A stretch of 64,000 nucleotides of DNA from Ruminococcus sp. (GTDB lineage Bacteria; Bacillota; Clostridia; Oscillospirales; Ruminococcaceae): contig SVNX01000003.1 of NCBI GenBank assembly GCA_015066665.1, positions 39,074 to 103,073 on the forward strand, in the 5' to 3' direction. Positions 30,761-61,587 of the stretch are shown here, one piece after another. Position numbers and translations under genes: made by a program. Position 1 is the first letter of the stretch. Each line of letters opens with the position of its first letter. A model generated the notes under the pieces. The model saw nothing but the letters and a program-made list of their open reading frames with translations. It ran no database searches and had not been told where the DNA came from.

Positions 30761-32539
30761 GTGATATCCATGAAAAGAATCGAATTCAAGGCGTACGGCG
30801 GTACCGGTACGCTGATCGGAAGGAGCTTTGTGACGCTCATGGCGCTCAATGCCTGCGACCTGGCCGGCAGCGAGCATCAGGACGATGAGTGCGTGATTTA
30901 TCAGCTCGACTACGACGATCAGAGACCCGTCGGCAACACCACAAACGATGCTACCTACTTTAAACATGTCATCAGCTGCTATAACCAGCTGCACAACCGC
31001 GGTCTGAAATTTATCGCACCCATCAGCATGAAGATTGCACCGTACACATTGAAAAATGTCAGAGCGCACGCATACGGTGCCAATGAGGATCTGTACAGCC
31101 TGGAATCCCTGTTCTGCAGCGGCAGAAACAAGCAGGAGATCCGTGAGCTGCTCTCCTCCGCCTTTACCACCGATCCGGAATCCACAACCGAAGAGCTGGA
31201 GCGTTCCAACCGTGACGGCTGCTATGGTGACCTTGCCGTCAACGGCTTCATCAGCAAGAGACTGCTCGTGCGCCGTTCGTTCCATAATGTGGGCATGTAC
31301 AGGGATCTGGCCGGCCGTCTGGATGGTGCACAGGTGTTCTATGCCGGCTCTACCGACGGCGGTACTGCCAATACCATGATCGATAAGGACATTGAGTCCC
31401 TGCTGGACTTTCTTGCAGCAACCGGTGTTGACACCGGACACAATCGTCCCTTCCGCCTGTACGGACTGAGAACCACCCCCTACAGCAAGTTTGAACTGAA
31501 CGGCAACGATGCCGATGTTGCCATCACAGCCCCGATCCTGCGTGATAAGTTCGAAATGTCCAAGGGCGTATTCATGAACATCCAGCGTCAGAATGACAAT
31601 CCGGACAGAGAAAGCTACTACTATCTGGATCCCAACCGCTCCTACTGGCTCGATGGTCTGTTCATCGGTGCAAGCAGCACGCTCGACCTCACCTCCGCCG
31701 AGGCCAAGAAGGATAATCAGTACCACCCGTCCCATCTGGTGGAATTTGCACTGGCACAGCAGGCCATGGATGCCATTGCCGGCCGTCTGCCCCAGCTGCC
31801 CGAGTCCACCCCCCATATCTATGGCTATAACGACAGCGCCGAGGACTTCATCACACTTGACGGTTTCTTCAAGGAGAGCCGTGTGAAGTATTCCTATGAG
31901 GTGCTCACCGACAATAAGCCGCCGGAGTCCACCATTGAACTTTCCAAGTATATCCGTGCCATTCTGCTGACACTGGTGACCATCCGCGGCCAGATGATTG
32001 CTGACTTTGCCAATTATAACGACTGCCCCGACTATGTGGACGATATTTTCCATAAGTGCCATGGTGATGAGCCGACCGTGTGCCCGCTCGTTGCCACAGA
32101 GCTGAAGAAGTTCCTCGATGAATCCAAGTTCATCGTTATGACCTTCATGAACATCATGGAGTATTCCAAGTTCGACCATGGTGCACAGATCGTCCGCTTT
32201 ATGGAAAATGCCATCCAGTATATCTATGATGTGGACAATATGGGCAGACCGATCACCCGTCCGGCAGAACGCACTCTCGCAGTGATCCAGAACGATGCCG
32301 GTACCGATTTTGAAGTGCGCTTTGAGGCATTCCCCGAATTCTGGGCACTCGATGAGATGTCCCGCATCCGCTTTGAACGCGGCGGCGTATTCGGCGGCGG
32401 CAAGCTGAAGAATGAGATGTTCTACCTGAATCATCAGGGTCAGAGTGCACAGGACAGCGCTTCCATCATCGCCAATAACATGATCAAGCGTACATTTGAA
32501 ATGTATCTGTCCGTACTGAATCCCGACGGCGGTTTCTAA
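30761..32539 (+). CDS. Cluster gene A: candidate divergent tubulin/FtsZ-superfamily (Tubulin_2-like) protein
   Basis: N-terminal FKAYGGTGTLIG (T1-like), RDGCYGDLAVNG near residue 155 and FYAGSTDGGTANTMID near residue 198 (T4-like GGT). Alternative ATG start at 30770. Confidence 0.4.
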   Translation: MISMKRIEFKAYGGTGTLIGRSFVTLMALNACDLAGSEHQDDECVIYQLDYDDQRPVGNTTNDATYFKHVISCYNQLHNRGLKFIAPISMKIAPYTLKNVRAHAYGANEDLYSLESLFCSGRNKQEIRELLSSAFTTDPESTTEELERSNRDGCYGDLAVNGFISKRLLVRRSFHNVGMYRDLAGRLDGAQVFYAGSTDGGTANTMIDKDIESLLDFLAATGVDTGHNRPFRLYGLRTTPYSKFELNGNDADVAITAPILRDKFEMSKGVFMNIQRQNDNPDRESYYYLDPNRSYWLDGLFIGASSTLDLTSAEAKKDNQYHPSHLVEFALAQQAMDAIAGRLPQLPESTPHIYGYNDSAEDFITLDGFFKESRVKYSYEVLTDNKPPESTIELSKYIRAILLTLVTIRGQMIADFANYNDCPDYVDDIFHKCHGDEPTVCPLVATELKKFLDESKFIVMTFMNIMEYSKFDHGAQIVRFMENAIQYIYDVDNMGRPITRPAERTLAVIQNDAGTDFEVRFEAFPEFWALDEMSRIRFERGGVFGGGKLKNEMFYLNHQGQSAQDSASIIANNMIKRTFEMYLSVLNPDGGF

Positions 32540-32561
32540 AAAACAGAGAAGGAGTAAAGCT

Positions 32562-35500
32562 ATGAGTTATACATTTCCAGGTCAGCAATTTGCGCAGCCC
32601 GGTACACAGCCGATTGACCTTGTACAGCTGCTGGGCAACCTCCCCGAATGGGGCAAGGCCCTGAAGCTCGGCGTGGCCGGTGCACCTACATACAGAGCGT
32701 TCAATACATCCGCTGCTTACTTTGAATTCATGAACAAGCAGAATCGGGATTTCAGCGACAGTGAAGCCAACGAGTTCATCCTCTCTCCCGACCTGCCCAA
32801 GTTCCAGGATCTCAGAAAATATATGATCATCCTGGCCAATGTCCTGCTGAAGGAATACTGCGATCTGAATCTGGCTGCCAGAAAGATCGACTACATGACC
32901 GTCTGCGATTATGACGGCCAGAACGATGACCTCAAGAAGCTCATCGGTGAATGGGCCAAGGAGATCGATTCCAGAAATAACCGGGATCTCACCGAAATCT
33001 ACATCAAGGTCGACGGCACTGCCTATCCGATTGCCTTCTACTCCGAGACCAAGATGCGTGTGTATCCCTTCAATACCATCAATCGTGTTGCCCTGCAGAA
33101 GCTTCTCGGCTGGGATGAGGAGAAGAAGGACTTCACAATGGAAGCCCTTGCCAAGGATTTCAATGCCCGTCCCACCTCCGACAGAGTGCTCTATGCCGCA
33201 CTCTATGACACCAATGCAGGCCTCACCACCATCAATGCCGCAAAGGCACTGGCACTCTGGCTGACCAGAAACAGAGCCGGCATCCGTATGGAAAACGGTG
33301 CACCCTATCCGATTCAGTGCGTGGAGGTTGTCATCGACGATCAGGTGCAGAGCCTCAATCTGCCCATCCCCGCCATGCCCTACGGCCTGAAGAAGCACAA
33401 TGCCTTCTCCGAGCAGCTGCTGATCATCAAGTCCAATTCCAATGCCAGAAATCATGAGTGCGGCCTGTGCACCATCCCCAACGCCAGCATTGGTATCAAG
33501 GATGCATCCGCACCGGAGCATGCCATCGTACCTCCGCTCAGTGATTATCTGATCGGTCTGATCCGTTCCCAGCAGGTGGAATTCAAGGGTGCTGAAGTGG
33601 CCAAGAACGGCGGCGATTATCAGGCAACCATCCATCTGTGCATCCAGGGTGCGGACTGCAGCTTCACCTGGGACTATGCGGCCGGGGATGTGAGAAAGTG
33701 TGACAACTTCCCGCTGGTATCCGTCCTCAAGTGCCCCAATGAAGCCACCATTGCCCGTCTCTACCGCTGCGACTATGAGCCGGTCGACAGAACACCTGCC
33801 TCCTATCTGGACGGCTATGAGATCAAGCTGGGTCTCGCACAGGGCCATGACAATAATTATGAGCTCCAGTTCAATGTGAATGTCACCGTGAACCAGGATG
33901 AGCTGTATTACTTCGGCGTGCGTTATCACAATTCCGATGAGGGCCGCACCTATTCCTGCGGTTACCTGTTCTATGATAGGGCGCACTCCCTCTACAATGC
34001 CACCAATGCATCCGATTCCACTTCTGTTCTGATCGATGACTCCAACAACATCGCACAGATCGCAGTACTCGATACGGACACCAACAAGGTGAGCGCCTAT
34101 AACGTATACAACGACCGCATCTTCTTCTTCAACCGCAACAGCCGCAATGACTTCGATGCAAGAAACGGCAAGATCTGGGGTGAACCCAATACCACCATCT
34201 TTGAAGTGGCCGGCGGCAGCATGTTTGCACTGGCACCCTTCAGCAGCGAGTTTGCTGACATGGTGGCCAATAAGCAGATCAGACTGACTCGTGCCGACCT
34301 GAAGCAGGACGGCCATAACTGGGAGTTCTTCGTTGAGTTTGAGTACAAACGCAGAAACATGAAGACCAAGACCAGAGTCTACAAGCCCGAGGAGCAGTAC
34401 ACCTCTCCCAATCCGCCCTTCCTGTATGCTGTGCAGACCGTGAATGCCCAGACTGCAAAGCCCGGCTATGATGTCATCATGGTGCAGAATATGCGTGTGG
34501 CAGGCGGCGTGTCCCAGAGCGGCAAGTCCAATGTCCTCGATTCCAACGACCTGCAGTTCCAGATCGGCAAGAAGAGCATTGTTTCCACACTCTTTGTGGA
34601 TCAGCAGGAGCTGGATCAGCACAACCCCAGAACCTATATCAAAATCTACGGCAGCCCCTCCGACGGCAAGCCCTATTATGGTCAGATCTCCCTGCCTCTG
34701 GCATCCTACAGCCTGCTTGACGGTTTCCACGCACTGAAGGATGATTCCACCGACTGTGCCGCCGTTCTGCTCGTGAACAATATGGGTGCCGGCCAGCCCA
34801 AGCAGATCATCACCGGCCGTGTATTCGATGACAATCTCTTCCTGATTGCAAGAGAATCCTCCCGCAGTGCCTACACAGAGTATAAGTCCTGGCGCAACAG
34901 CGGTCTGTTTGTCGATGTGGAAGACATGCCCATGGAGCATCGTGACGGTAAGGAATATGAGGCTATCTTCCCGTTCAGCCTGCAGATGCTGCGTAATCTG
35001 AACAGCGGCAATCTCCAGCTGTCCCAGGGCCACAGACCCGTTGTGAGATATGACCGTGAATCCAAGTGCTACCGTGTGTCCATCTTCATCGAAAAGGGCA
35101 ACGGTGAGCAGGATCCCTTCACCATGTCCTACCGTGAAAGCCAGATCGTCCGCTGTGACAATCTGCCCTTCATCGTGCCGCTGAAGGATAACGAGAACCA
35201 TATGCACATTGTCCGCTTCAACAACGAGGCGCAGCAGCATCTGCGTGACCACGCCGACGGTACCCGCATGATCATCGACTGCATGAACGGCGAGAAGGCT
35301 GTTCCTGTGGAAAAGGAGAAGATCGTGTCGCTCGACGGCAGTAATGTGATTCTGCGTGTGGCTGCCCCCAAGGAGAATGCACAGTGCGTATGCCATGTGC
35401 TGTATCAGGCAGCAGAGCCCTTCGGTGACGGCGTGTATTCCGTGCATTCCGATGCCACCGGTGCACAGCATGTATTCGATTACAATGCCAAGGAAAACCG

Positions 35501-38285
35501 TGTCAGAGAGATCACTGTCTTCACGGATTATATCATGTGGACAAGCCTCTTTGCTGACACCTTCGCAAACGGTACAGAGCCGGTTTCCGTTTCTGACAGA
35601 GGCCGCCGTGATTCCCGTATCTATTCCATCCCGATCACAATGGAATTCTCCCGCCTCATGGAGGAGAGAGGCCTGAAGATTGCGGATTACTCCCATGTCA
35701 AGTACCACACCGATGTGAACGATGTGGACAGCGGCATCACCGACAGCAATGCCGATCTCTATGTCACCATCAGTCTCACCGGCCTGAAGGGCGGATCGTC
35801 CACCGTTCAGAAGTGCTTCGATAAGAGCCACATCGTCGGCTTCGGCCGTTACCCGCTGCCGACACTGACGGTATTCCCGTTTGTGAATTTCGTGGCCAAC
35901 CATACTTATGGCGAAAAGCTGCGCGGCAAGAGCCTCTGGCAGCAGTATTCCTACGCCAAGTTCACAAAGGAAACCGAAACCGCAGAACGTGACAGCAATG
36001 CCCGTACCGAGGCACTCGGTGCCCGTGTTGAGTTCTGGATCAACGGCAAGAAGGTTGAGTTCCAGAAGAGAAGCACCAAGATCATGGACTCCATGGAGGT
36101 CAATGAGCAGACCCGTATGGAAGTTGCCAAGGTTTCCGGATGGGGTCACTACATCCATATGAAGTACGATGGATCCAATACAGTTGCTCCCACAAAGCCC
36201 GTGGACAGCCAGTGGAACGGCAAGGAGCTCGGCTGCATCATCATGAAGCCGGCGCCTACCAAGGAGGTCGATTCCACCCGCAATGCCACTGTCGGTGTGG
36301 ACTTCGGTACCAGAAATTCCATCGTGGCCATCTATCCCGACGGCGTGACAGCTGTGAGCTTCCCGTACCACGGTCATCAGGAGCTGCAGAAGATCGTCAT
36401 CCCCGGCATGGATGATGTCGCCTTCAAGGATTTCTCCAACCTGAGCTATATTCCGCACTTTGACGGCAGAGCCGATATGGGCGTGGGCTGCGGTAAGTTC
36501 GCTTCCACCGTTATGGCCTACTCCGTTGTTGAAGCTGCCAATGAAGTGCTCACTCCCTATGACCGTGGCTTCGTGCCCAATGTACAGGGCGACGTGCTCA
36601 AGAGAATCATGAACCGCATGACCCGTCCCGGTTCCATGGCCGACCTGCTCGGCTTCTACAGCGATCTGAAGATCTCCACAAGTGCAGATACTGCCGATCC
36701 GAATCTGATCCGCATCATGGACCGCAATGTGCGTCTGTTCATCAAGAGCGTTATGTTCCATACCGCACTCAACTGCTATCAGGCAGGCTGCGGCAAGATC
36801 AATGTCCGCTTCTCCGTACCGTCCGAGATGTTCGTCAAGAATCTCAAGCCCGTATGGCTCGAGGCACAGAAATATATCGATTCCTACTTCCCCGAGCAGG
36901 CACGAGGCAATATCACCGTGGGTGAGTATGCAACCGAGGCCAAGGCCCTGTTCAAGCATCTGAGCAGCAATATGAACGGCACACCGCCCAAGTATTCTGC
37001 CATCACCGACGGCGGTGACGGTACCTATGACTTCACCATCAACAAGCTCGTCGGCAACCAGCTGACCAATCCCAATGCCTTCTCCCTGCGTTATGCCGGT
37101 CAGCAGATCATGACCGATAGCGTGAATGCCTTCTATGACCATCTGGTACGCCGCAACGGCGGTCAGCGCAGTGAGGAAGTCAAGTCCGTCTTCAGAGGCC
37201 TCTGGAAGTCCGGTGACGGCTCCGAGGCTGTGCTGGAAACCCGTGAGCAGCTGATCACGCAGCTCTCCGATTACCGCAATATCCCCGGCGGCACCGACCG
37301 TGAACGTGAGAAGACCATGGTGCTGATGCTCGTTGAGCAGTTCGGCATCGACTGCCAGAAGCTGCGCAACCCCAATGCCCGCAACCTGATGCAGATCGTG
37401 ACCCCCGAATATACCAACTTCGTCAGAATGATCCAGTACAAGTTCCTGTTCCTCTTCAACGTACTGGGTGAACAGATCCGCAAGAATATCCGTCTGGAAG
37501 AGGACGATGTGACAAGCTTCAACATCTACCTCTACGGCGGTACCGCACAGGCACTGACCATTGCAGAACCGCTCTGTCAGGGCAATCTGGCCGTATACGG
37601 CAGCCCCGGTGCCGGCAACCTGCCCATGGTGGTCTTCATTGATGCAATGCTGGATCTGCCGAGAAATGTCAACGGCGAAAAGATCATCCTCAAGTTCATC
37701 CCCGCAAAGGACTCTGAGAAGCGTGAGATCGCAAGCGGTCTGATCGCAATGCAGAGAACCGAGCTGCATAACTTCAATGTGGATGGCGGCCAGAATGTGG
37801 AGATCCCGAGCTTTGCCGGTGCAGCCCCCGCTGCTCAGCAGCAGGAACCCGCAGAAGGCGGATTCGGTGATTTCTTCAGCGGATTCGGCAATATGGGCGG
37901 CATGGGCTTCGATATGAATCCCGCACCGCAGCCCGCAGCCCCCGGTATGGATACGGGCGCAGAGAGAAACGCCAGAAAGCCCAGAACGCTCGATGGCTTC
38001 ATCGACAGCCTCAAGGAAGTACTCTGCAACCGTACCGTAGAGCTGCCGCAGGGTGAGTATTCCATCGACAACTTCCTGCCCTTCATGGACGAGAACGGCC
38101 AGCCCATCTACCTGTCCCGCATTCTCGATGATCAGATTGTCAGAAATGCAATGCTCTCCGAGCTCACAACACTGTGGAATACCGTATGCACTGAGAACAG
38201 CGACATCGACGATCCCGATATGCTCTACCATATCTACACACTGAAGATGGTAGGCCTTGCCATTGAGGCATATCTCAGAAAGTAA
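32562..38285 (+). CDS. Cluster gene B: 1907-aa giant protein with a C-terminal actin/Hsp70-like (ASKHA) ATPase domain
   Basis: GAAGGAG RBS. Ordered motifs VGVDFGTRNSIVA (phosphate 1), RFSVPS, YATEAKA, ITDGGDGTYDFTI (phosphate 2) and IYLYGGTAQ (adenosine). The N-terminal ~1230 aa have no recognised domain. Confidence 0.7.
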   Translation: MSYTFPGQQFAQPGTQPIDLVQLLGNLPEWGKALKLGVAGAPTYRAFNTSAAYFEFMNKQNRDFSDSEANEFILSPDLPKFQDLRKYMIILANVLLKEYCDLNLAARKIDYMTVCDYDGQNDDLKKLIGEWAKEIDSRNNRDLTEIYIKVDGTAYPIAFYSETKMRVYPFNTINRVALQKLLGWDEEKKDFTMEALAKDFNARPTSDRVLYAALYDTNAGLTTINAAKALALWLTRNRAGIRMENGAPYPIQCVEVVIDDQVQSLNLPIPAMPYGLKKHNAFSEQLLIIKSNSNARNHECGLCTIPNASIGIKDASAPEHAIVPPLSDYLIGLIRSQQVEFKGAEVAKNGGDYQATIHLCIQGADCSFTWDYAAGDVRKCDNFPLVSVLKCPNEATIARLYRCDYEPVDRTPASYLDGYEIKLGLAQGHDNNYELQFNVNVTVNQDELYYFGVRYHNSDEGRTYSCGYLFYDRAHSLYNATNASDSTSVLIDDSNNIAQIAVLDTDTNKVSAYNVYNDRIFFFNRNSRNDFDARNGKIWGEPNTTIFEVAGGSMFALAPFSSEFADMVANKQIRLTRADLKQDGHNWEFFVEFEYKRRNMKTKTRVYKPEEQYTSPNPPFLYAVQTVNAQTAKPGYDVIMVQNMRVAGGVSQSGKSNVLDSNDLQFQIGKKSIVSTLFVDQQELDQHNPRTYIKIYGSPSDGKPYYGQISLPLASYSLLDGFHALKDDSTDCAAVLLVNNMGAGQPKQIITGRVFDDNLFLIARESSRSAYTEYKSWRNSGLFVDVEDMPMEHRDGKEYEAIFPFSLQMLRNLNSGNLQLSQGHRPVVRYDRESKCYRVSIFIEKGNGEQDPFTMSYRESQIVRCDNLPFIVPLKDNENHMHIVRFNNEAQQHLRDHADGTRMIIDCMNGEKAVPVEKEKIVSLDGSNVILRVAAPKENAQCVCHVLYQAAEPFGDGVYSVHSDATGAQHVFDYNAKENRVREITVFTDYIMWTSLFADTFANGTEPVSVSDRGRRDSRIYSIPITMEFSRLMEERGLKIADYSHVKYHTDVNDVDSGITDSNADLYVTISLTGLKGGSSTVQKCFDKSHIVGFGRYPLPTLTVFPFVNFVANHTYGEKLRGKSLWQQYSYAKFTKETETAERDSNARTEALGARVEFWINGKKVEFQKRSTKIMDSMEVNEQTRMEVAKVSGWGHYIHMKYDGSNTVAPTKPVDSQWNGKELGCIIMKPAPTKEVDSTRNATVGVDFGTRNSIVAIYPDGVTAVSFPYHGHQELQKIVIPGMDDVAFKDFSNLSYIPHFDGRADMGVGCGKFASTVMAYSVVEAANEVLTPYDRGFVPNVQGDVLKRIMNRMTRPGSMADLLGFYSDLKISTSADTADPNLIRIMDRNVRLFIKSVMFHTALNCYQAGCGKINVRFSVPSEMFVKNLKPVWLEAQKYIDSYFPEQARGNITVGEYATEAKALFKHLSSNMNGTPPKYSAITDGGDGTYDFTINKLVGNQLTNPNAFSLRYAGQQIMTDSVNAFYDHLVRRNGGQRSEEVKSVFRGLWKSGDGSEAVLETREQLITQLSDYRNIPGGTDREREKTMVLMLVEQFGIDCQKLRNPNARNLMQIVTPEYTNFVRMIQYKFLFLFNVLGEQIRKNIRLEEDDVTSFNIYLYGGTAQALTIAEPLCQGNLAVYGSPGAGNLPMVVFIDAMLDLPRNVNGEKIILKFIPAKDSEKREIASGLIAMQRTELHNFNVDGGQNVEIPSFAGAAPAAQQQEPAEGGFGDFFSGFGNMGGMGFDMNPAPQPAAPGMDTGAERNARKPRTLDGFIDSLKEVLCNRTVELPQGEYSIDNFLPFMDENGQPIYLSRILDDQIVRNAMLSELTTLWNTVCTENSDIDDPDMLYHIYTLKMVGLAIEAYLRK

Positions 38286-38420
38286 AATGCCGTCCCCGTC
38301 CGGCCGGATGTGTCCATTCCGGACGCATCCGCCGGTGCGGCGGTGTGAAAATCGCAGTCCCTCGCTGCTTCGCAAGGTGCGGACAGTGCAGGGATCCAGT
38401 ATCTGAAAAGTGGTGATAGA

Positions 38421-39836
38421 ATGAACGCAGAAAGCGTGACACTGAACATTGCCGGCGAAGAAATGCCCGGCGCCTGGGCGGCAGGGGCAACCTATGCCAT
38501 CACCAGAGCCAATACGCCGTTTCTGCTGATCGTGGCAGAACGTGAGGATGCATTTCTGGACGCCATTCTGTATCAGAAGGGCGGTGCCGGACTGCTGGCA
38601 CAGGTCAAAATCCCCATGCAGATGATGCAGTGCCTGACGGATAAGCTGACGGGTGCATTCATGCAGCAGATTCTTCTGCGGCAGAAGCATGCACCGACGC
38701 GTGTGAATGAAGTGCTGCGTGATTTTTCCGCACTCTTCCGCCGGTCTCCCGAGGCGCAGCAGCTGTTTCAGCAGCTGGCAGGCATTGTCACAGCCGATCC
38801 GAATCAGCTGACGTTTTCCGGCATTCAGCCGGTCTTCCGCAAGCTGGTGCAGACCTGCGAGCTTGAGCCCGTCATGTATCCCCAGATCCTTCGGAAAAGG
38901 GGCATCGAAAATACAATGATGCAGCTCTATGCGGCCTCTTTGACAGAATGGAATCAGCTGACAGCCCTGCTTCGTGATTTTCTGCGCAGGCAGGCCGTCT
39001 GGCTGAATGAACCGAATGCCGATCTGCAGATCCATTTCTGCGGCAGTATCCGTAAGCTGGCCGTACTGGCCGAGCCCTCTGCCGTGCACAAGTCCACGAT
39101 ACAGATGAATCAGAACAGCCGTGACATGCTCTATGGCATGACCATGGAAATGCTCCGTGTACCTGAAAAACAAACGCCGTGGCGGATGCAGATGGCTATT
39201 TATGCCGGAGATTACGAAAAAATGATGCTGGAAGGCTATCACAATTTCCAGGCGAGAACGGCCGGTGCGCAGAATGCGGAAACCCATCCGGCAAACGTCC
39301 GTGTTTTCCACGATACTGTGCTCTCGCTGCCGGCGGAGTTTGGCATCTATGCAGGCAGTGTACAGGGGAGAAAGCTTCCTGTGAACGGCAGCCTCGTGCA
39401 GACCTCACCGCTTGACGGCAGTCTTTTGATTGCTCCCTTTTCTGATGCATTTTCGACCCTGATTGCGCAGGGCAAGGTCACTGTACAGAACATGCAGTGG
39501 ACGGCCGAGGGCGACAATCTGCAGTTCACCGTGGAATTCACCCATGAGGGACGCAGCATCCGTCCGGCACCGCGTATCTATACACCACAGGATGTGTGCC
39601 GTGTAACGACACCCCCTGAACTGATTTTGTTCCGCACGCCGGGCACCTCCGGGATGCATGTGCGGATGGAGAATACCACCATGCAGGCTGCACTTTACGG
39701 CGGCATCCGGCGAGGAAAGGCTGTTCAGGCGCAGGCCGGCATGTATCGGTATTATTTTAAACTGTATCGGGATGATGCATTCCTTGGGCAGTTCGATTAT
39801 CTCCTGGCGAAAGGAGTGAGTGCAGGCAATGAATGA
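38421..39836 (+). CDS. Cluster gene C: hypothetical protein sharing a ~75-aa module with giant protein B
   Basis: [20 protein letters not shown]...[26 protein letters not shown] aligns with ALAPFSSEFADMVANKQIRL...WEFFVEFEYKRRNMKTKTRVYKPEEQ in B. Confidence 0.6.
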
Positions 39837-41544
39837 TGAGAATCAGATGGGTTTTAACCCGTGGGGCATGGATTTCGGTGACCTCGGCGAACCCGTGAAA
39901 AAGAAAACGTCCCCGCCGGCACCGCAGCCCAGCCCCGAACCGGAAGCAGAAGCCCTTCCCGAAATCCCGAATTTCTTCGGCGGCTTCGGCGATCTCGGCG
40001 AGCCTGTGAAGAAGGCCGAACCGAAACCGGAACCCAAGCCGGAACCCGAGCCAACGCCCGAACCGGAAGCAGAAGCCCTTCCCGAAATCCCGAATTTCTT
40101 CGGCGGCTTCGGCGATCTCGGCGAGCCTGTGAAGAAGGCCGAACCGAAACCGGAACCCAAGCCCGAGCCGAGCCCCGAACCGGAAGCAGAAGCCCTTCCC
40201 GAAATCCCGAATTTCTTCGGCGGCTTCGGCGATCTCGGGGAGCCTGTGAAGAAGGCCGAACCGAAACCGGAACCCAAGCCCGAACCCGAGCCGACGCCTG
40301 AACCGGAAGCAGAAGCTCTTCCCGAAATCCCGAATTTCTTCGGCGGCTTCGGCGATCTCGGGGAGCCTGTGAAGAAGGCCGAACCGAAACCGGAATCCAA
40401 GCCGGAACCCGAGCCGACGCCTGAACCGGAAGCAGAAGCCCTTCCCGAAATTCCGAATTTCTTCGGCGGTTTCGGCGATCTCGGCGAGCCTGTGAAGAAG
40501 GCCGAACCGAAACCGGAACCCAAGCCCGAACCCGAGCCGACGCCCGAACCGGAAGCAGAAGCCCTTCCCGAAATCCCGAATTTCTTCGGCGTCTTCGGCG
40601 ACCTCGGCGAGCCTGTGAAGAAGGCCGAACCGAAACCGGAACCCAAGCCGGAACCCGAGCCGACGCCTGAACCGGAAGCAGAAGCTCTTCCCGAAATTCC
40701 GAATTTCTTCGGCGGCTTCGGCGATCTCGGTGAGCCTGTGAAGAAGGCTGAACCGAACCCGGAACCCAAGCCTGAACCCGAACCGAGCCTCGAACCGGAA
40801 GCAGAAGCCCTTCCCGAAATCCCGAATTTCTTCGGCGGCTTCGGCGATCTCGGCGAGCCTGTGAAGAAGGCCGAACCGAAACCGGAACCCAAGCCCGAAC
40901 CCGAGCCGACGCCCGAACCGGAAGCTGCTGCTATGGATGAGTGCACAGGCACGGAGGATGTACAGGAAGAACCGGCTGTCGGCTTTGATACACCTTTTGC
41001 TGCAGAAACGGAGGAAGCCCCTGCATCTCCCGCCCTCCCGGATGCACCGGACGAGGCGGATCTGGCCTTGTTTGACGCAGCGGAGACGGAAGAACCCGTC
41101 GGGGAAGAAGCTTCAGTCTGGGATGATGCGGTCATGGAGCCGTGCTATGATTCCGATGAAATCACCGCAGCACTGCCGGACAAGGATCCCTACTGCCGAC
41201 TGACTGTGCCCGCCGTTTCGGAGGATGCCCTCTGGAAGGCAGAATGCCGCAGTGCCATGCCGGCCGACGGCGAAGCCATGCTCGAAAGCGTGCTGCAATG
41301 GATGCAGGGAAGTGAGAAGGTCTTCCATTATCCGAGAATCCCGCTGGGTGACCGCGGATGGAGTGTGGAGGAGATTCTGAAGCATCCGGCTGTCCGCAGC
41401 GAAATCACCCGCAGCGGTGCCAAGCTCTGGGAGGAAACCATCCGCCAGTCCGAGACGGGAACCGCACCCGACTGGATTCGTCTGGCATGGAACCGCAAAA
41501 TGATGCAGCATGCGGTGGACTACTTCATGATCTGTATGCGATAA
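39829..41544 (+). CDS. Cluster gene D: FG-motif / PEPK-spacer tandem-repeat protein with a globular C-terminal domain
   Basis: 9 [10 protein letters not shown] motifs, 8 of them preceded by [14 protein letters not shown] is 12 nt after an AAGGAG RBS and overlaps the end of gene C by 8 nt. Confidence 0.7.
39874..40926 (+). repeat. In-frame tandem repeat: 8 full copies of 123 bp (one is 117 bp) plus a partial first copy
   Basis: Copy starts measured at 39961, 40084, 40201, 40324, 40447, 40570, 40693 and 40816. Only scattered substitutions between copies. Confidence 0.95.
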
Positions 41545-41573: not shown

Positions 41574-43145
41574 TTGGCAAAGTTGATGTATGAAAATGAA
41601 GTCGACGGCGACGGCTTTCCGGAGTGCAAAGATCAGACAAACACAATGCAGCTGTCGTTCAGCGAAGTCAGGGAACACAACTACATCTTTGATACTGTGC
41701 TTGTCGGAGACGGCACAATGATGAAATTCTGCTACAATGAGGAGCAGGATCAGCTCTATGCATTCGAAGTGAATCCCGAAACCGGCGAGGCAGCGGAGAA
41801 TGTGACCGTGCATGCGATCTTCGATCAGGAGCTTGAACTTGAAAAGGGCACCTATACCATCGAGCTGGAAGGCGATACCTTTGCGGTGACAAAGGAAGAG
41901 CAGTCCGTTCTTAAGGGCGGCAGCGTCAGTGCGCTTGTCAGCGGCAGGGATGCCAACAAGATGGTGCTGAAGAACAATGTCGAAGCCGGCAAGGAATATC
42001 TCGCTGAGAATCAGTCCGGTGACGCCGTCACCGATGCACCGGCTGCCGAAGTTCAGACCGATGCCCCTGCTGCGGAGACTCCGCAGGCAACTGAGGAAAC
42101 TTTTGCGACACTTTCAGTGGAGCAGCCGTCCACAGAAACCGCTGCAGCAGGCGATGAGGGCGGCGGCAGTCCTGTTCTTGTGATTCTGCTTATCGTGGCA
42201 GCTGTCGCCGCACTGCTGGCATGCGGTGCTGCGGCTGTGTTTGCTGTGATGTTCAAAAAAGCCAAGAGTGAAACGGATATGCTCAAAAAGAAGGTGCGTG
42301 CACTTCAGAATGAGAGCAGCAGCAAGACCATGCTGATTGATGAAGCCAAGGCAAGCAGACATCAGAGCGAAGGTGCCATCGAGACGCTTGAATCCGAAAA
42401 TAACGAGCTGAGAGCCATGAACCAGAAGCTGATGCAGAACGAAAAGGCATGGGAACAGAAGCTCAATGATATGCATGCCGATGCCACACAGAAGCTCGAG
42501 GAGAAGGACGCACAGCTTGCCAAGATGCGCAGCACTGCCGAGGCGTGGAAGGAATACGCCGAAAAATGGAAAAATTATGCCGATCAGCTGAAGCAGTATT
42601 CGGATCGTATGGAAGGCAATGTGCAGCAGCTCGTACAGAGACTGATCAATTACGAGCAGGTCAATGCCGAACTTCTGGCATCGCAGGCACCCGCTGCACC
42701 CGATGCACCGGAACAGACCGAGCAGACGGCCCCTGCTGCAGAACCCGAGTTCACACCGGAACCCGAGGAGACACTGGAGGACAGAGCACTGCGGATCTCT
42801 CTTGATCTCGATGAGGTCGACCGCTATCCGGAAGCCGTCTTCCTGAATGTGGCCAATATGATGACCGGTGAGGTGCGCCTGAGTGCCGCTTCCTCCTACA
42901 GAACGGCACCCATCGTGCTGATCGGCCGGTATCTGTACCTGAATCCCTATTTCTTTGTGGATCTGCCCAAGCGCAGAGAGTCGGTCAATAACCTCAGAAG
43001 TGTGGAGGCCATTTATGAGATTTCCGGACTGGGCGGCGGCAATCTGCCCTATGGACTGGATTACATCAGCCCGGCACAGGCCACCGATATTGACGGCAAG
43101 AGCTTCCGTCTTGACAGCAAGGGCCGCATGACCGTCAGTGCGTAG
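41574..43145 (+). CDS. Cluster gene E: single-pass membrane protein (N-terminal domain, TM, coiled coil, conserved C-terminal domain)
   Basis: TTG start 7 nt after a GGAGGAG RBS, with an alternative ATG at 41586. TM PVLVILLIVAAVAALLACGAAAVFAVMF followed by KK. Heptad-rich segment. C-terminal domain is paralogous to gene F. Confidence 0.65.
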   Translation: MAKLMYENEVDGDGFPECKDQTNTMQLSFSEVREHNYIFDTVLVGDGTMMKFCYNEEQDQLYAFEVNPETGEAAENVTVHAIFDQELELEKGTYTIELEGDTFAVTKEEQSVLKGGSVSALVSGRDANKMVLKNNVEAGKEYLAENQSGDAVTDAPAAEVQTDAPAAETPQATEETFATLSVEQPSTETAAAGDEGGGSPVLVILLIVAAVAALLACGAAAVFAVMFKKAKSETDMLKKKVRALQNESSSKTMLIDEAKASRHQSEGAIETLESENNELRAMNQKLMQNEKAWEQKLNDMHADATQKLEEKDAQLAKMRSTAEAWKEYAEKWKNYADQLKQYSDRMEGNVQQLVQRLINYEQVNAELLASQAPAAPDAPEQTEQTAPAAEPEFTPEPEETLEDRALRISLDLDEVDRYPEAVFLNVANMMTGEVRLSAASSYRTAPIVLIGRYLYLNPYFFVDLPKRRESVNNLRSVEAIYEISGLGGGNLPYGLDYISPAQATDIDGKSFRLDSKGRMTVSA

Positions 43146-43178: not shown

Positions 43179-44621
43179 ATGGTCGTTTCAATTATTTTCA
43201 ACGTCATTCTGCTCCTGTTCGGCGCTTTCTGCGTGTGGAGCATTTATGTGTACAACGGCAGACTGCGGCAGCTGGATGAGGATAAGCAGCGTCTGCGTGA
43301 AGAACGCAACGCTGCCGTTCAGGAGCTGAACGAGAAGAAATTCCTGCATTCCTATCATAACCGTCCTGAGGCTGTGCAGCAGCAGGAGGAACAGATGAAG
43401 ACACTGTCCGATGAGAATCGCAGACTCCGTCAGGCACTTGCGCAGTATCATCAGGGACATGTTCCCGGAATCCAGGAAATGACAAAGCAGATCAATTCCA
43501 TGAAGATGCGTAATCAGGCACTGGATGATCAGATCAAGCAGATGAAGAACCGGGAGTTCTCCCTCGAGTCGGAGATCAAGGGCCTCAAGAATACCATTGA
43601 TGCCCTCGAACGGACAACACCGGGTTCGTCCGCAGCGGCCGGCAGTGCGGAAACCGTACAGCTTCGAGCCAGAGCGCAGGAGCTGGAGGAGGCACTGGCA
43701 CGCAAGACCAAAGAATGGAATGAGCTTGACATCCGCTGCAGGAAGCTGGAAGCCCGCATCGATCAGGATAACGAGGACGATAAGGTGCTCCGCCGCCAGC
43801 AGACCGAGGAAACCGAGGTACTGCAGAACCGTGTGCAGACACTGAACCGTCAGATTGAGACGGAACGGGATCAGTTCAGGGAGAAGTATGCAGAGCTGAT
43901 GCAGCAGCAGAAGGCGCTTGAGGAACAGAGCCGTGTGCGTGAGCAGGAGCTGGAAGCCCTGCAGAGCCGCATCCGGAGTATGGAATCGGCACTCTATGAC
44001 GCCCAGATGGGCAAGGATGCTGCCCCCGAAAGCGCTTATGACCGCCGCACTGTGGAGGCGGCCCTGAGACAGAAGGAAGATGAAATTACCCGTCTTGAGC
44101 AGCGTGTGGCTTCCATGGAACGGGATGTGACCTACCTGCAGAAGGAGTGCCGTGCCAAGACCAGAGCCTATGAGGAGCTGCAGAAGGATCAGACAGCACT
44201 CGAGAGAGCATATGAACGTCTTCTTGCAGAGCAGGAAGAAATTGTGCCCGAGGAGGTGGAAGATGCATCGGCAGACTATCTGCGGATGGCAACGGACTGC
44301 GATGCCCTTGATGAGGAAACGGAGGCACTGTATCTGCACATGAGTGTGGATCTGTCCGGCGGTGTGCGTCTGACCAATTCCGGCAGCTTCCGGAATGCAG
44401 CCGTTGTCCTTTTGCCGGACGGTGCGCTGATCCCCAATCCCTATTACTACAGAATGCCCGTGAGCGGACTTGATCTGATGGGTCTGGAGCGGCTGTTTGC
44501 CCTGCCGGAAGGTCTGGTGAAAGCGGAGCATTACCGTCTGACCGAGGTGGAACCGGCACGGGCCGAAGACCGCAGCGGCAGCATTGTGGTAACGGCACGG
44601 GGGCGTCTCGGAATCGGATAA
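43179..44621 (+). CDS. Cluster gene F: N-terminally anchored coiled-coil protein with the same C-terminal domain as gene E
   Basis: TM at residues 2-25, about 330 aa of E/Q/R/L-rich coiled coil and a C-terminal ..GGVRLTNSGSFRNAAVVLLPDGALIPNPYYY.. domain. Confidence 0.7.
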   Translation: MVVSIIFNVILLLFGAFCVWSIYVYNGRLRQLDEDKQRLREERNAAVQELNEKKFLHSYHNRPEAVQQQEEQMKTLSDENRRLRQALAQYHQGHVPGIQEMTKQINSMKMRNQALDDQIKQMKNREFSLESEIKGLKNTIDALERTTPGSSAAAGSAETVQLRARAQELEEALARKTKEWNELDIRCRKLEARIDQDNEDDKVLRRQQTEETEVLQNRVQTLNRQIETERDQFREKYAELMQQQKALEEQSRVREQELEALQSRIRSMESALYDAQMGKDAAPESAYDRRTVEAALRQKEDEITRLEQRVASMERDVTYLQKECRAKTRAYEELQKDQTALERAYERLLAEQEEIVPEEVEDASADYLRMATDCDALDEETEALYLHMSVDLSGGVRLTNSGSFRNAAVVLLPDGALIPNPYYYRMPVSGLDLMGLERLFALPEGLVKAEHYRLTEVEPARAEDRSGSIVVTARGRLGIG

Positions 44622-46288: not shown

Positions 46289-47716
46289 ATGCAGGATCTG
46301 TTTGAACGTGTGCGTGAATATTATTATCAGGAGCGCGGCCGGAGCTGGGAACAGAACTGGGAGCCGTATCAGGTGGAATCCCAGGGCCGCTGGACACGGA
46401 TTTCGTCTCGGAATCGGGATGATCTGCGCAGACTGCATGCGGCAGTGTTTCTGTTTGCGAAAAACGGCGTGCTCGGGCAGGAGGAAGCCCGTGCCATGCT
46501 GGAGGAAAAAATGGAGCTGGCCGGCCGGATCCGCACGCTTGGCAGTGCATCGAACTTTACGGTTACTGTGGATTATGCCGCCGTGTATCCCATTATGGAA
46601 GAGAATGTGACGGTTGGCTATGATGTACTGCTGCGGTACATGCCGGAGCAGAGCGTGTGTGAACGTCTCGGCCGTGATATTCCCTTGCAGGAACGTGTCC
46701 GCTGCCTTCTTCGGACAGATACGCCCGAAGCGGCAGCCCAGCGTGATGCACTTGGAGCACAGCTTGTCCGCAGCATTGCCATGGCCATACAGGAGATGGC
46801 ACATGCCGGACTGCACCACGGCCACATCAGCCCCGATACCCTCCTTGCACGCAGCAGCGAGGGTGTGACTGAATTTGCACTGCAGGTGCCGGGGCTGGAG
46901 CGCTTTCTGAAAAGCGATGCGGAGGATCGTCTGGTGACGGATCTGTATACTGCTCCCGAGCTGCTGCTTGATCCGGCGCAGAATTTTGACATGCAGACCG
47001 ATCTGTATGCCGCCGGTCTGCTGCTCTATCAGCTGCTCAATGAGGGAAAGCTGCCGTTCGAGTCGGAGAAGGTTTCGCCGGATGAGGCCGCACGCATCCG
47101 CATGCAGGGTGCAGAGGAATTGCCCCTCCCGAGAAACGGCTGCCGTCTTTTGCAGTACATCGCAAGAAAATGCTGTGCTCACGACAGGTCGCATCGCTAT
47201 GCGGATGCGGCGGAGCTGCTTGAAGATCTGCGGCGTATGGGCAGCAGCTTCCTGACCGGATATGATCCGGCAGAAGTGGTGACCCGTTCGGAACGTGCCT
47301 GCACAGAAGCGACAGAGGCGGCTGCTGCGGAAGAAGCCTCCTGGGCTGAGAAGTACCATGCGCTCGAAGAAGAGACCGCCCGTCTTCTCAGAGAAAAGGA
47401 TGAGCAGCTCCGCAGACTGCACGAAACCGCCGCACAGTGGCGTGCCTACAGTGAAAAATATCAGGAGAATGCAAAGATGTGGCAGAACTACGCCAATCAG
47501 CTCAAGCAGCAGGTGGATTATCTGCAGCAGAGTCTCCAGCAGAATCCGCAGCCGGTTCGTCAGGATATGATGGCCCAGCGTATGGCATCACCCATGCCTG
47601 CGGACGGCGGCGTTAAGGATACACTGAACAATGTCTTCTCCTCCATTTTTGGCGGAGAACAGAACAAGCCCCCCATGCCGGACGGGGATATCTTCAAAAT
47701 GCTCGGCGGAAAGTAA
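46289..47716 (+). CDS. Cluster gene H: kinase-fold protein lacking catalytic residues (pseudokinase candidate) with a coiled-coil tail
   Basis: Kinase C-lobe pattern GLHHGHISPDTLL..QVPGLERF..YTAPELL..DLYAAGLLLYQLLNEGKLPF..HDRSHRY. HRD is replaced by HGH and DFG by PGL, and there is no G-loop. Confidence 0.65.
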   Translation: MQDLFERVREYYYQERGRSWEQNWEPYQVESQGRWTRISSRNRDDLRRLHAAVFLFAKNGVLGQEEARAMLEEKMELAGRIRTLGSASNFTVTVDYAAVYPIMEENVTVGYDVLLRYMPEQSVCERLGRDIPLQERVRCLLRTDTPEAAAQRDALGAQLVRSIAMAIQEMAHAGLHHGHISPDTLLARSSEGVTEFALQVPGLERFLKSDAEDRLVTDLYTAPELLLDPAQNFDMQTDLYAAGLLLYQLLNEGKLPFESEKVSPDEAARIRMQGAEELPLPRNGCRLLQYIARKCCAHDRSHRYADAAELLEDLRRMGSSFLTGYDPAEVVTRSERACTEATEAAAAEEASWAEKYHALEEETARLLREKDEQLRRLHETAAQWRAYSEKYQENAKMWQNYANQLKQQVDYLQQSLQQNPQPVRQDMMAQRMASPMPADGGVKDTLNNVFSSIFGGEQNKPPMPDGDIFKMLGGK

Positions 47717-47740
47717 CACGGAAGGAAAGGAGCCTTGGAA

Positions 47741-49453
47741 ATGCAGGATCTGTTTGAACGTGTAAGAGAATATTATTATCAGGAACGCGGCAGAGGCTGG
47801 GAAATGAACTGGGAACCGCATCAGCTCGATCTTTCCGACCGCTGGAGCTGTATTGCGCCAAGAAATAAAAATGACCTGCGCCGGATGTTTGTCGGCACGC
47901 TTCTGTATGCAAAGGCAGGTCTGACCTCCCGAGAGGAGGCCGAGGCACTCTTCATTGAAAAGAATCGTCTGGCCGGAAAAATTCAGGATCTCGGTGACTA
48001 CACGCTGTATACGACCAAAGTGGATTATGCCGTTGTCAAGGATATCGAGGAGGACGGCGAATATGTCGGCTTCGATGTGCTCCTGCGCTATGAACCGGAG
48101 CAGTCCGCTGTGGAGCAGGCTGCCGCAAGTGCCGCACAGCGTGACCGCATCCGGCATGTTCTGCATGATGGTTCACCCGATGCGGAAAAGCTGAGAAACC
48201 GGATCGGCGAGCAGCTTGTGCACAGCATTGCACTCGCCTTGCAGGAAATGGAGCGTGTCGGGCTGCATCACGGTCATATCAATCCCGAACATCTCATGCC
48301 CTATGAGCACGACGGCACACTTGAATTCCGTCTGCATATTCCGGGCTTTGACAGTCTGCTCAAATCCGATGCGGATGACCGCATGGTCGTCGATTACTAC
48401 AGTGCACCGGAGCTGATCAATGACAGCGCACAGCCATTCGATGTCAGCACGGATCTGTATTCCATGGGCATTCTTCTCTATCAGCTGCTCAATGAGGGGA
48501 AGCTGCCGTTTGAATCGGATACCGTTTCTCCCGACCAAGCTGCCCAGCTGCGCAGCCAGGGTACAAAGGAGATACCGCTGCCGAAGCACGGCTGTCGGCT
48601 GCTTCAGTATATCGCACGCAAGGCCTGTGCCTTTAGCAGGGTGCATCGTTATGCCAATGCCGCCGATGTTCTGGAAGATCTCAAGCGCATCGACAGCAAG
48701 GTGCTCACGGGCTATGACCCCATGGAGATTGTGACCTCCGGCGGAAAAGTCCCCGCACCGAATCAGGTCGGTACAGCGGATGCCCGTGCACTGCAGGCTG
48801 CCCGTGCAGAAGCAGAAATGCTGCGTGCCGAGCTTGCCAGAATGAAAGCCGAGGCGGACAGCGCCCTTCAGGCCGCAAAAGCCTGTGAGACACTGCACAG
48901 GGAAAAATCCGTGCTGGAAGTGAAGAATAAACAGCTTGAAGCCAAGAATAAGCAGCTTGAAGCCAAGAATAAGCAGCTTGAGAGTAAGTGCAGCAAGCTT
49001 GAAGTTGCCTGCAATATGTTGGAAATGAGCACCATTGTCAGTCAGAAGGATCGTGATGACAGGGAAGCGGCTCTCAGGCGTGAGTCGGCACTCCGGAAGG
49101 AGAACGATACGCTCAAAGCTGCCTGTGAACAGCTCAGACACGAACTGGCCGACTGTCGGAAGCAGGCAGAACAGGCCAAAGCGAAGCCCGCACCGGTGGA
49201 TACGGGACTGCAGAAAAAAATGCAGAGCCTTGAGACCCAGCTTGCCGAAGCCCGTGCAGAACTGGATGTGTGGCAGAAACGTGCTGAAAAATGGAAGAAC
49301 CACGCCTGGATGATGTATGCCCGTCAAGGCAGCGGTGCCCCCATGCCGTCCCATGAGAATACATCAGGGGTGACGCATGAGGAAACCATGCGCAAAAAGC
49401 GTGAGGCAGTCATTGATGCACGTTTTGAGCAGGAGCTGAGACAGAAAAAATGA
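47741..49453 (+). CDS. Cluster gene I: pseudokinase-candidate paralog with a long coiled-coil tail
   Basis: The first ~85 nt are nearly identical to gene H (MQDLFERVREYYYQERGR). GLHHGHINPEHLM..IPGFDSL..YSAPELI. Confidence 0.65.
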   Translation: MQDLFERVREYYYQERGRGWEMNWEPHQLDLSDRWSCIAPRNKNDLRRMFVGTLLYAKAGLTSREEAEALFIEKNRLAGKIQDLGDYTLYTTKVDYAVVKDIEEDGEYVGFDVLLRYEPEQSAVEQAAASAAQRDRIRHVLHDGSPDAEKLRNRIGEQLVHSIALALQEMERVGLHHGHINPEHLMPYEHDGTLEFRLHIPGFDSLLKSDADDRMVVDYYSAPELINDSAQPFDVSTDLYSMGILLYQLLNEGKLPFESDTVSPDQAAQLRSQGTKEIPLPKHGCRLLQYIARKACAFSRVHRYANAADVLEDLKRIDSKVLTGYDPMEIVTSGGKVPAPNQVGTADARALQAARAEAEMLRAELARMKAEADSALQAAKACETLHREKSVLEVKNKQLEAKNKQLEAKNKQLESKCSKLEVACNMLEMSTIVSQKDRDDREAALRRESALRKENDTLKAACEQLRHELADCRKQAEQAKAKPAPVDTGLQKKMQSLETQLAEARAELDVWQKRAEKWKNHAWMMYARQGSGAPMPSHENTSGVTHEETMRKKREAVIDARFEQELRQKK

Positions 49454-49475
49454 TCGTTGAAAGGAGCGAAGGAAT

Positions 49476-56150: not shown

Positions 56151-56230
56151 TGCAGAAAGCCCCCGCCTAAAGGTGAGTACACATAAAGAACTATCTCAGG
56201 TTTTAATTGAAAGGTTATGTAGAAAATGCT

Positions 56231-57925
<1,695 letters not shown>

Positions 57926-57945
57926 TCAAGCCTGCCGTTATCTGT

Positions 57946-58119
57946 TCATGCAGACTTTTCTATCTCACGGGCGATAAGCCGGTTGATAATATCTTCCAGA
58001 CTTTCATCTGTATCTGAATTGAAACTGATCTTGACACGGTAAGTTGTCAGACCGATACGGTACTCCGAGTAGGAGCAGTCTACCTTCTCTTTCTCTGCGG
58101 TAGTTGTTGTCTCTTTCAA
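57946..58119 (-). CDS. Small TnpW-like transposon-encoded protein (57 aa, below the ORF-track cutoff)
   Basis: Hand-translated as LKETTTTAEKEKVDCSYSEYRIGLTTYRVKISFNSDTDESLEDIINRLIAREIEKSA. TTG start 5 nt after an AGGAG RBS. Confidence 0.5.
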   Translation of the reverse strand: MKETTTTAEKEKVDCSYSEYRIGLTTYRVKISFNSDTDESLEDIINRLIAREIEKSA

Positions 58120-61568: not shown

Positions 61569-61587
61569 GAGTGATCTATTCACCGGC

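Follow-up and report, generated by a model that had tools for sequence, protein, structure and literature searches.

Gene D encodes a protein of 571 residues, much of which is a tandem array of a Phe-Gly (FG) motif on Pro-rich spacers, and lies in a 64,000-nucleotide stretch of Ruminococcus sp. contig SVNX01000003.1, referred to here as the window. It belongs to a conserved operon of about 25 kb, which is rare and, apart from generic domains, without annotation; no description of this gene cluster or of the motif was found in the literature. Here we describe the array, the protein family of D and its relationship to the giant protein B encoded upstream, and we weigh what the array may do. Genes are lettered A to J, coordinates are window positions, and orthologues are cited by our own handles (L001, P0037 and so on).

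Gene D and its repeat array

The plus-strand frame from 39820 to 41544 is stop-free, and D likely starts at the ATG at 39829 rather than at the GTG at 39820; in contigs of the same species the gene calls begin at the equivalent ATG. The elements of the gene, taken from the open reading frame (ORF), its translation and the alignment of orthologues, are as follows:

39811..39817, plus strand: Shine-Dalgarno sequence AAAGGAG for D
39829..41544, plus strand: gene D, 571 residues, with an N-terminal motif, an eight-unit array, an acidic disordered segment and a folded C-terminal domain
39847..39903, plus strand: degenerate N-terminal copy of the motif, residues 7-25, with FGDLGEP at 39874
39952..40929, plus strand: eight tandem units, each a 21-residue motif and an EP/KP spacer, in a register anchored on ALPEIPNFF
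40927..41109, plus strand: acidic disordered segment, residues 367-427, with secondary hydrophobic-acidic patches
41110..41541, plus strand: conserved C-terminal domain, residues 428-571

Tandem Repeats Finder reported one array at 39934-40925 (period 123, 8.1 copies, 93% matches, score 1765), and translation of the frame gives eight 41-residue units after an earlier degenerate copy. Units begin at 39952, 40075, 40192, 40315, 40438, 40561, 40684 and 40807; seven of the eight are 123 nt long and unit 2, with one EP pair fewer, is 117 nt. Pairs of units differ at 3-13 nucleotides. A preliminary description of this DNA had counted eight full copies with a period of 123 bp (one of 117 bp), differing by a few nucleotides and preceded by a degenerate first copy, and all of this was confirmed. 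When stop-free stretches of at least 100 residues in all six frames of the window were searched for FGD[LFIM], ten matches were obtained, of which nine fall in D and the tenth in B.

In residues 1-375 of D, Pro makes up 25%, Glu 20% and Gly 10%, and the net charge is -54. By charge and hydropathy, this region and the acidic residues 376-440 both plot as disordered, and residues 441-571 are folded-like. The disorder prediction that the preliminary description had proposed as a check thus gives a protein disordered over about residues 1-427 (to 440) with a folded-like tail. The N-terminus is acidic and non-hydrophobic, and no signal peptide or transmembrane segment is visible by eye in the sequence.

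The ATG of D at 39829 overlaps the stop codon of gene C (39834-39836) by 8 nt. The overlap is likewise 8 nt in L006, L017, L018 and L021, and 4 nt in L026 and L028, an arrangement which implies that C and D are coupled in translation.

An ORF antisense to D (39843-41135, minus strand) is a shadow ORF. A stop-free minus-strand ORF of 2275 residues (32484-39311) likewise lies antisense to B, and many similar mirror ORFs occur on the minus strand of the window. The codons TTA, CTA and TCA are absent from the 1907 codons of B and number 10 in the 6811 codons of ten cluster genes; because the cluster genes almost never use them, the antisense frames lack stops, and we regard these frames as shadow ORFs and not as genes.

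Conservation of the motif in the D family

Within the array, variation is distributed unevenly between motif and spacer. With the units of the window and of L006 pooled, the 22 motif codons hold seven synonymous variants and one non-synonymous variant, and the 19 spacer codons hold six synonymous and seven non-synonymous variants plus an indel; the contrast gives a one-sided Fisher p of ~0.07 (calculated by hand from small counts), a value that is no more than suggestive. Between strains the 20-residue motif core stays nearly intact, the only changes being GGYGD, GGFVD and GVFGD. The sequences thus support the motif, rather than the spacer, as the conserved element of the array.

Relatives of D were sought with phmmer among 1.84 billion representative proteins, of which only ten proved to be true relatives, all with 2-8 motifs of this type; P0042, a Cna-B-like repeat protein among the matches, was discarded as spurious. 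A word-indexed protein search with the C-terminal region of D returned no matches. Orthologous loci were gathered by a genome scan with A and from contigs encoding homologues of B or A, and all belong to rumen or gut Oscillospiraceae/Ruminococcus metagenome-assembled genomes (MAGs) or metagenome contigs. B and A themselves are represented by only about 10-22 protein clusters in 5.8 billion proteins. For A, B, C and D, searches of Pfam, NCBIfam, PADLOC, PHROGs and PDB sequences and profiles gave nothing meaningful, the matches consisting only of compositional or coiled-coil noise and generic kinases; a profile of C had no match in the JGI metagenomes.

Every D orthologue follows the same plan. 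A motif lies in the first ~25 residues, two to five more copies follow on P/A/E-rich spacers, and an acidic disordered stretch then leads into a conserved C-terminal domain of ~120 residues. Patches of the types DDDLFxAP and DDEFTAP in orthologues are the equivalents of those in the acidic segment of the window protein. The preliminary description would have given up its reading of D had the motif been missing from homologous clusters; since every D orthologue carries the N-terminal motif and repeats, this ground falls away. Copies number 8+1 in the window, 4-5 in L001/P0037/P0054, five in L018, four in P0038, three in P0043 and two in L017 and P0036. The motifs themselves are these:

L001/P0037: IPDFGFDNLPGVDFGDPEP
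L018: DPFAGLGGFDIPADAIKP
L017: PDPFAGGGFGGFGGIPADMIK
P0038: FGGEFSNPAIPE
P0043: DDFGNAP
P0034: SFGLE
L026/P0039 and P0041: SSSFLDDDDDEEE, without FG

Further forms are SSSFLDDDDD in L026, SFILDDDDDD (without FG), and GLGGF and FGGFG in orthologues. As judged from these sequences, the family conserves an aromatic/Gly patch with acidic residues after it, and the exact 11-residue peptide is not kept. The EP/KP spacer is specific to the species of the window; the P/A/E-rich spacers of orthologues are without KP.

Protein B and its relationship to D

The single FGD[LFIM] match outside D lies in B, the giant protein encoded upstream of C, for which the following features were recognized:

32562..38285, plus strand: gene B, 1907 residues, with a predicted ASKHA ATPase domain at about residues 1230-1735
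36291-36320, plus strand: phosphate-1 motif VGVDFGTRNS, invariant in nine orthologues
37002-37034, plus strand: phosphate-2 motif ITDGGDGTYDF, invariant in nine orthologues
37524-37553, plus strand: adenosine motif IYLYGGTAQA, invariant in nine orthologues
37770..37973, plus strand: disordered linker
37857-37916, plus strand: single motif GGFGDFFSGFGNMGGMGFDM in the linker, ~30 residues beyond the ASKHA domain
37974..38282, plus strand: C-terminal domain, residues 1805-1907 (about 105 residues)

The sequence of B has no match in Pfam, NCBIfam or PDB. The phosphate-1, phosphate-2 and adenosine motifs are nevertheless all present and in the correct order, and residues 1181-1907 were modelled with AlphaFold 2 (AF2) from an alignment of nine sequences (predicted local distance difference test, pLDDT, 64; predicted template modelling score, pTM, 0.64). 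The top 50 Foldseek matches of this model are nucleotide-binding domains (NBDs) of Hsp70, which match best, together with the actin-like filament protein BeeR (E 7e-6 to 2e-4, probability 1.0); the TM-scores do not exceed 0.44, a low value that reflects the pLDDT of 64 of the model itself. On these motifs and this model, the ATPase domain of B is assigned to the ASKHA class as an Hsp70-NBD-like member, and the preliminary description, which had named an ASKHA domain among the candidate receptors, was right that the cluster holds one. It had also placed a motif related to that of D in B, and GGFGDFFSGFGNMGGMGFDM is that motif. The linker around it has a pLDDT of 22-29 in the AF2 model, and the C-terminal domain that follows 82-94.

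Two further lines connect D to B. The first is homology of the C-terminal domains: hhalign aligns D residues 501-566 (41329-41526) with the C-terminal domain of B over 66 columns (probability 87.9%, E 3.2e-6). On this evidence, which we consider good but not overwhelming, D and the tail of B are paralogues, a relationship that the preliminary description had missed. C has a comparable relationship to another part of B, since its last ~140 residues (39396-39812) show homology to residues 546-715 of B (BLASTP E 6e-9; hhalign 97.6%, E 4.7e-12). Because the tail of C matches B 546-715 and the tail of D matches the C-terminal domain of B, C and D look like detached paralogues of N- and C-terminal modules of B.

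The second line is that, in the sequences compared, the motif of B changes with that of D from one lineage to the next. Motifs found in the same genome are paired below:

D motif DPFAGLGGFDIP; B linker motif DPFSALGGGLAGFSIG
D motif NPFSGLGGFDIP; B linker motif NPFGGLAGFAGFGIE
D motif DPFAGGGFGGFGG; B linker motif FPFPGGGFGGFNNFGGFGG
D motif VPDFGFDNL..DFGDPEP; B linker motif DDPFDFGDAFGDPFGDP
D motif SSSFLDDDDDEEE; B linker motif NSSLLDDEEEFED
D motif SDPFDFG / ASPFGGM; B linker motif DDPSPFGDPFGSD (includes DDPSPFGDPFG)

Co-variation was assessed in nine genomes between D minus its last 130 residues and the 80 residues preceding the last 108 of B. The sum of same-genome Smith-Waterman scores was matched or beaten by 274 of 362,880 permutations, a result we read as supportive and not as a probability because genome relatedness and compositional bias remain in it. 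An earlier permutation test with hand-picked motifs gave 6/5040.

Natural variants bear on the same link. In the reduced clusters L022 (10001-15622) and L023 (GCA_965298035.1, GCA_965297555.1), B is split into a 1222-residue N-terminal protein and a 639-residue protein comprising the ASKHA domain and tail; these clusters lack C, D and the coiled-coil protein G, and the B linker is without the motif. A phage-type integrase lies upstream of this reduced cluster. L025 (17632-20994; GCA_024684395.1) has, between B and C, an extra 1120-residue paralogue of the C-terminal half of B, with the ASKHA and C-terminal domains and a linker without the motif.

Copy number and authenticity of the array

Eleven contigs from other samples encode a B protein that is identical or 99% identical to that of the window, and their flanks match the window at 98.3-100% (at least 99.7% in 10 of the 11). 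Among these same-species contigs D has 532 residues (seven units), 368 (three) or 286 (one), against 571 (eight) in the window, and 7 of the 11 end within the array. Further same-species fragments start within it and contain at least four or at least five units. The fragments also carry strain-specific spacer variants, namely 39-residue instead of 41-residue units, KPQPSP and DPRP. In a second species, two assemblies give D proteins of 402 residues (four units) and 442 residues (five units). The RefSeq MAG record of this species, L001 (NZ_DXUU01000030.1), has a run of N at ~19200-19310 inside the orthologous array, which splits the gene into the 'partial' proteins WP_295218015.1 and WP_295218016.1; it is the ENA assemblies that yield the intact 402- and 442-residue proteins. 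The exact eight-unit D protein of the window is absent from a collection of 15 billion proteins.

The array is genuine, since it is long in several independent assemblies, and the suspicion of an assembly artefact raised in the preliminary description can be set aside in view of multi-copy arrays in independent assemblies and in other species. The exact copy number is not to be trusted, because the contigs come from short reads and an array may collapse or break in them. Copy-number variation, predicted in the same description, is seen among the assemblies (8, 7, 3 and 1 units), and short-read collapse may account for it; true variation is likely but unproven.

Comparison with known families and systems

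Several assignments suggested by composition or by the motif were considered for D and rejected. PorACj (NCBIfam NF038022), a family of small channel-forming proteins of the cell wall, scores 59.8 bits against a cutoff of 28, but this is a sum over nine repeats and no single stretch passes; the best covers profile positions 9-19 of 32 (11 positions; D residues 51-61), and the relatives of the locus are Oscillospiraceae and Ruminococcus MAGs and not the mycolic-acid-containing Corynebacteriales. The match to procyclin/PARP (PF05887, Trypan_PARP; E 1.3e-5, 25.6 bits against a cutoff of 100) is a compositional one to EP, in which no single stretch passes either. The RTX calcium-binding repeat GGxGxD is, by eye, one residue out of register, with a single nonapeptide per 41-residue unit.

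The spacers had been called TonB-like, which holds for their composition. Like the (EP)n(KP)n spacer of TonB, those of D alternate Glu-Pro and Lys-Pro and are expected to form a polyproline-II rod. The likeness goes no further: TonB has an N-terminal membrane anchor and a C-terminal TonB domain, whereas D shows no hydrophobic N-terminal anchor and no Pfam TonB_C match, and the spacers of D orthologues lack KP.

The FtsZ C-terminal peptide, with the consensus D/E-I-P-x-F-L (D/E-[IV]-P-x-F-[LI]-[RK]), binds FtsA (an ASKHA protein), ZipA and SepF. As in D, a short hydrophobic peptide sits in a disordered, variable linker and an ASKHA ATPase belongs to the system. The FtsZ peptide, however, is single and followed by basic residues, whereas the D motif occurs in up to nine copies followed by acidic residues, and ASKHA binding is only proposed for D. 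Mimicry of the peptide was therefore rejected: the window (EIPNF) and L001 (DVPDF) agree with the consensus at its first five positions, but the motifs of most orthologues depart from it (DPFAGLGGF, PAFTGLGGF, SSSFLDD), a basic residue does not come next and D has no FtsZ domain.

Tandem WH2 nucleators (Spire, Cordon-bleu, VopL/VopF) resemble D in carrying several motifs on a disordered chain at a spacing of tens of residues, an arrangement that could bring together several subunits of an actin-fold (ASKHA) protein; there is no sequence relation, the signature of an amphipathic helix with LKKT is not conserved, and B is nearer to Hsp70 NBDs than to actin. In Hsp70 systems, the VLLLD-type linker, the DnaJ G/F region and GGMP tails place hydrophobic-acidic or Gly/Phe-rich disorder beside an Hsp70-type NBD, as in B. 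Unlike them, B has ~1200 unrelated N-terminal residues, and neither D nor B has a DnaJ or J-domain match (Pfam, NCBIfam) or an Hsp70 substrate-binding domain detectable with Pfam. Eps15 and epsin, with DPF/DPW repeats for AP2 appendages, and the FG-nucleoporins share with D many short aromatic motifs of 3-10 residues, of low complexity, in long disorder, and several D orthologues contain a literal DPF; but there is no homology, and D is bacterial with charged Pro-rich spacers. D does not conform to an FG-nucleoporin, its spacers being rich in Glu, Lys and Pro (-54 per 375 residues) and some lineages being without FG.

Genomic context

Besides A to D, the operon encodes an ECF-type (extracytoplasmic function) sigma factor, a secreted protein, a lipoprotein, a GH3 hydrolase, two small membrane proteins, the membrane coiled-coil proteins E and F, the coiled-coil protein G, three putative pseudokinases and a DUF5050 protein. 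Features of these neighbours that bear on the discussion of D are:

30770..32539, plus strand: gene A, 589 residues, putative NTPase with conserved Gly-rich loops AYGGTG and GSTDGGTANT
38421..39836, plus strand: gene C, 471 residues, missing from one lineage along with D and the B motif
47639..47713, plus strand: tail of the putative pseudokinase H, SSIFGGEQNKPPMPDGDIFKMLGGK, with no FG pattern and a single 'DIF'

A has no match in Pfam, in PDB profiles or in a viral structure library. Its AF2 model is of good quality (pLDDT 84, pTM 0.89) and has no PDB match with E <0.01; weak Foldseek matches to FtsZ/tubulin (E 0.03-0.1, probability up to 0.93) are interleaved with Rossmann dehydrogenases of the short-chain dehydrogenase/reductase (SDR) type, and the loops AYGGTG and STDGGTANT do not fit the T4 signature GGGTG[ST]G exactly. 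An earlier tubulin-like label for A is weak, none of these matches being significant; going by the model, a tubulin/FtsZ-like fold for A is possible but unproven.

H, I and J (46289-51626) are tandem kinase-like paralogues with the common N-terminus MQDLFERVREYYYQERG. Their matches to protein kinases are confined to the C-lobe, and HGHISPDT (HGHI(S/N)P) stands in place of the HRDxKxxN catalytic loop, so by sequence they are probably pseudokinases. J continues into a transmembrane helix and an extracellular C-type lectin domain, and other species have a single membrane-anchored copy. The preliminary description had seen a further related motif at the C-terminus of H. This was rejected: the tail fits no FG pattern, and orthologous kinases elsewhere have no equivalent of it and end in a transmembrane helix.

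E (41583-43145) and F (43179-44621) have in common a C-terminal domain of ~110 residues (R.A.VVL..G.L.PNPY[FY]; BLASTP E 2e-13) that belongs to no Pfam family; in orthologous clusters, L017, L018 and L021 included, three proteins end in it. A GH3 (NagZ-like) hydrolase (28196-29581) is always present in the cluster, which hints at a link to peptidoglycan remodelling, and a GH25-GH3 fusion lies upstream in some of L018, L019, L020 and L025. A large serine recombinase (56231-57910, minus strand; Resolvase, Recombinase, Zn_ribbon_recom and DUF4368 domains) lies where the G+C content falls from ~55% to 36-47%, and a mobile element has probably integrated next to the cluster, in the region 56000-64000.

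Type VII secretion was rejected as an identity for the system, the WXG100 match of F being weak, below cutoff and in a coiled coil, with no FtsK/EssC-type ATPase match among the proteins scanned (Pfam, NCBIfam). A phage or defence origin was likewise rejected, since PADLOC and PHROGs support only generic kinase and coiled-coil matches.

Possible roles of D

We propose that D is a cytoplasmic, mostly disordered scaffold that presents multiple copies of a short linear motif and that it is an amplified paralogue of the tail of B, a reading to which we assign a probability of roughly 0.6. The earlier picture of a multivalent disordered adaptor survives in its disorder, in the conservation of the motif and in its recurrence in B, and loses the motif in H and the condensates. 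D would have arisen as a copy of the B linker and the small C-terminal domain, after which the linker motif would have been amplified by tandem duplication. The C-terminal domain of D would enter the same site or assembly as that of B, and its 2-9 motifs, ~25-30 residues apart on Pro-rich spacers, would each bind the pocket of the B linker motif. With ~27 polyproline-II-like spacer residues at ~3.1 Å each, neighbouring motifs could lie up to ~8 nm apart. D would thus cluster, recruit or compete for several receptors, bringing up to nine of them together or competing with the peptide of B itself, and the B machine would have in D its scaffold, nucleator or regulator.

The favoured candidate receptors are C, because its translation is coupled to that of D and because it is lost with D and the B motif, and the ASKHA domain of B, by analogy with actin, ParM and Hsp70, which bind ligands in a hydrophobic cleft; A appears less likely. 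A more specific version, rather doubtful on present evidence, makes the D/B peptide the ligand of a new bacterial motif-receptor pair, through which D would gather several copies of the ATPase, or C, at the membrane, in the manner of a WH2 nucleator or of FtsZ-tail docking on FtsA. The setting would be a new envelope-associated machine of rumen Oscillospiraceae, encoded in ~25 kb and comprising the putative NTPase A, the ASKHA protein B, E and F as coiled-coil membrane tethers, the coiled-coil protein G, transmembrane pseudokinases and the GH3 wall hydrolase.

Several observations weigh against a scaffold that binds through the motif. The motif is degenerate across lineages, FG-rich in most and SSFLDDDD in some, so that one receptor with one pocket is an assumption. 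The co-variation test leaves genome relatedness in, to which a shared within-genome amino-acid bias of disordered regions may add, and the joint loss of C, D and the B motif was seen in two MAGs of a single lineage. At 88% probability, the alignment of the two C-terminal domains extends over 66 columns, the selection contrast between motif and spacer is drawn from small counts, and AF2, with an alignment of nine sequences, left the B motif undocked on its own ASKHA and C-terminal domains (pLDDT <30).

The same motif class could serve competition instead of assembly, with D as a decoy or regulator that titrates the site bound by the B linker motif, in cis or between B molecules. Such binding within B would give autoinhibition or head-to-tail assembly, and the copies in D would turn the machine off or on. 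The co-varying B and D motifs, the copying of the B tail module in D and the lack of the B motif in systems without D would all fit, and sequence data cannot separate a decoy from a scaffold. We nevertheless hold this role to be doubtful: cis-docking of the B motif was rejected on the AF2 model, with its pLDDT of 22-29 over the motif linker, and the coupled translation of C and D favours a complex of the two over a free inhibitor.

A passive role for D, as an entropic tether or ruler, is unlikely; the repeats would then only set the length and stiffness of a spacer that keeps the C-terminal domain at a distance, the Phe/Gly patch would have no partner and the copies would be alike through recent duplication and gene conversion. 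Differences of only 3-13 nt between units fit recent expansion or concerted evolution, the spacers combine 25% Pro with alternating charges, and the copy number seems free to vary. Such a tether would not account for the motif being kept as the spacer varies, both within the array (7:1 versus 6:7 synonymous to non-synonymous variants) and between strains. Nor would it explain why the old degenerate N-terminal copy keeps a 10-residue motif, why distant orthologues keep an aromatic/Gly-acidic patch on unrelated spacers, or why B retains a co-varying single copy.

The preliminary description had also suggested that D forms condensates, which would be driven by nucleoporin-like Phe-Gly cohesion between copies and would concentrate the proteins of the cluster. 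Nine FG patches per chain, the GLFG-like GLGGF and FGGFG of orthologues and the similar patch in B speak for it. Cohesive FG domains of nucleoporins have uncharged polar spacers, against which those of D are Pro-rich with a net charge of -54 over 375 residues; several lineages are without FG (SSSFLDDDDDEEE, SFILDDDDDD, SSSFLDDDDD) and some orthologues have only two copies. Because the spacers are so strongly charged and some lineages FG-free, self-condensation is very unlikely.

An array created by faulty assembly, or a D that is a known Pro-rich wall or channel protein of the TonB, PorACj or procyclin kind, is hardly credible: the PorACj score above cutoff, the Trypan_PARP E value of 1.3e-5 and the many contigs that break inside the array are outweighed by arrays of at least 2-7 copies with strain-specific units in independent assemblies from different samples and in other species, and by a PorACj match that is partial and summed, a PARP match below cutoff, no visible signal peptide or transmembrane segment and no TonB_C match.

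Conclusions

The repeats of D are an annotation trap, since they push it past the PorACj cutoff, so that automated pipelines could misname it, and in short-read assemblies the array collapses or is interrupted. Disordered proteins that carry many short linear motifs are a known device and a central organising principle of eukaryotic cells, and well-defined bacterial examples are few. New here are the family of D, the giant Hsp70-like ATPase with which it is paired and, in that ATPase, a single motif copy that co-varies with D and serves as an internal control; the lineage that lacks the array, C and the B motif is a natural knockout. The significance would be higher if the receptor proves to be of the ASKHA type or a tubulin-like polymer. 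Through D, a conserved operon of rumen and gut Oscillospiraceae that has so far gone without annotation becomes accessible to study.

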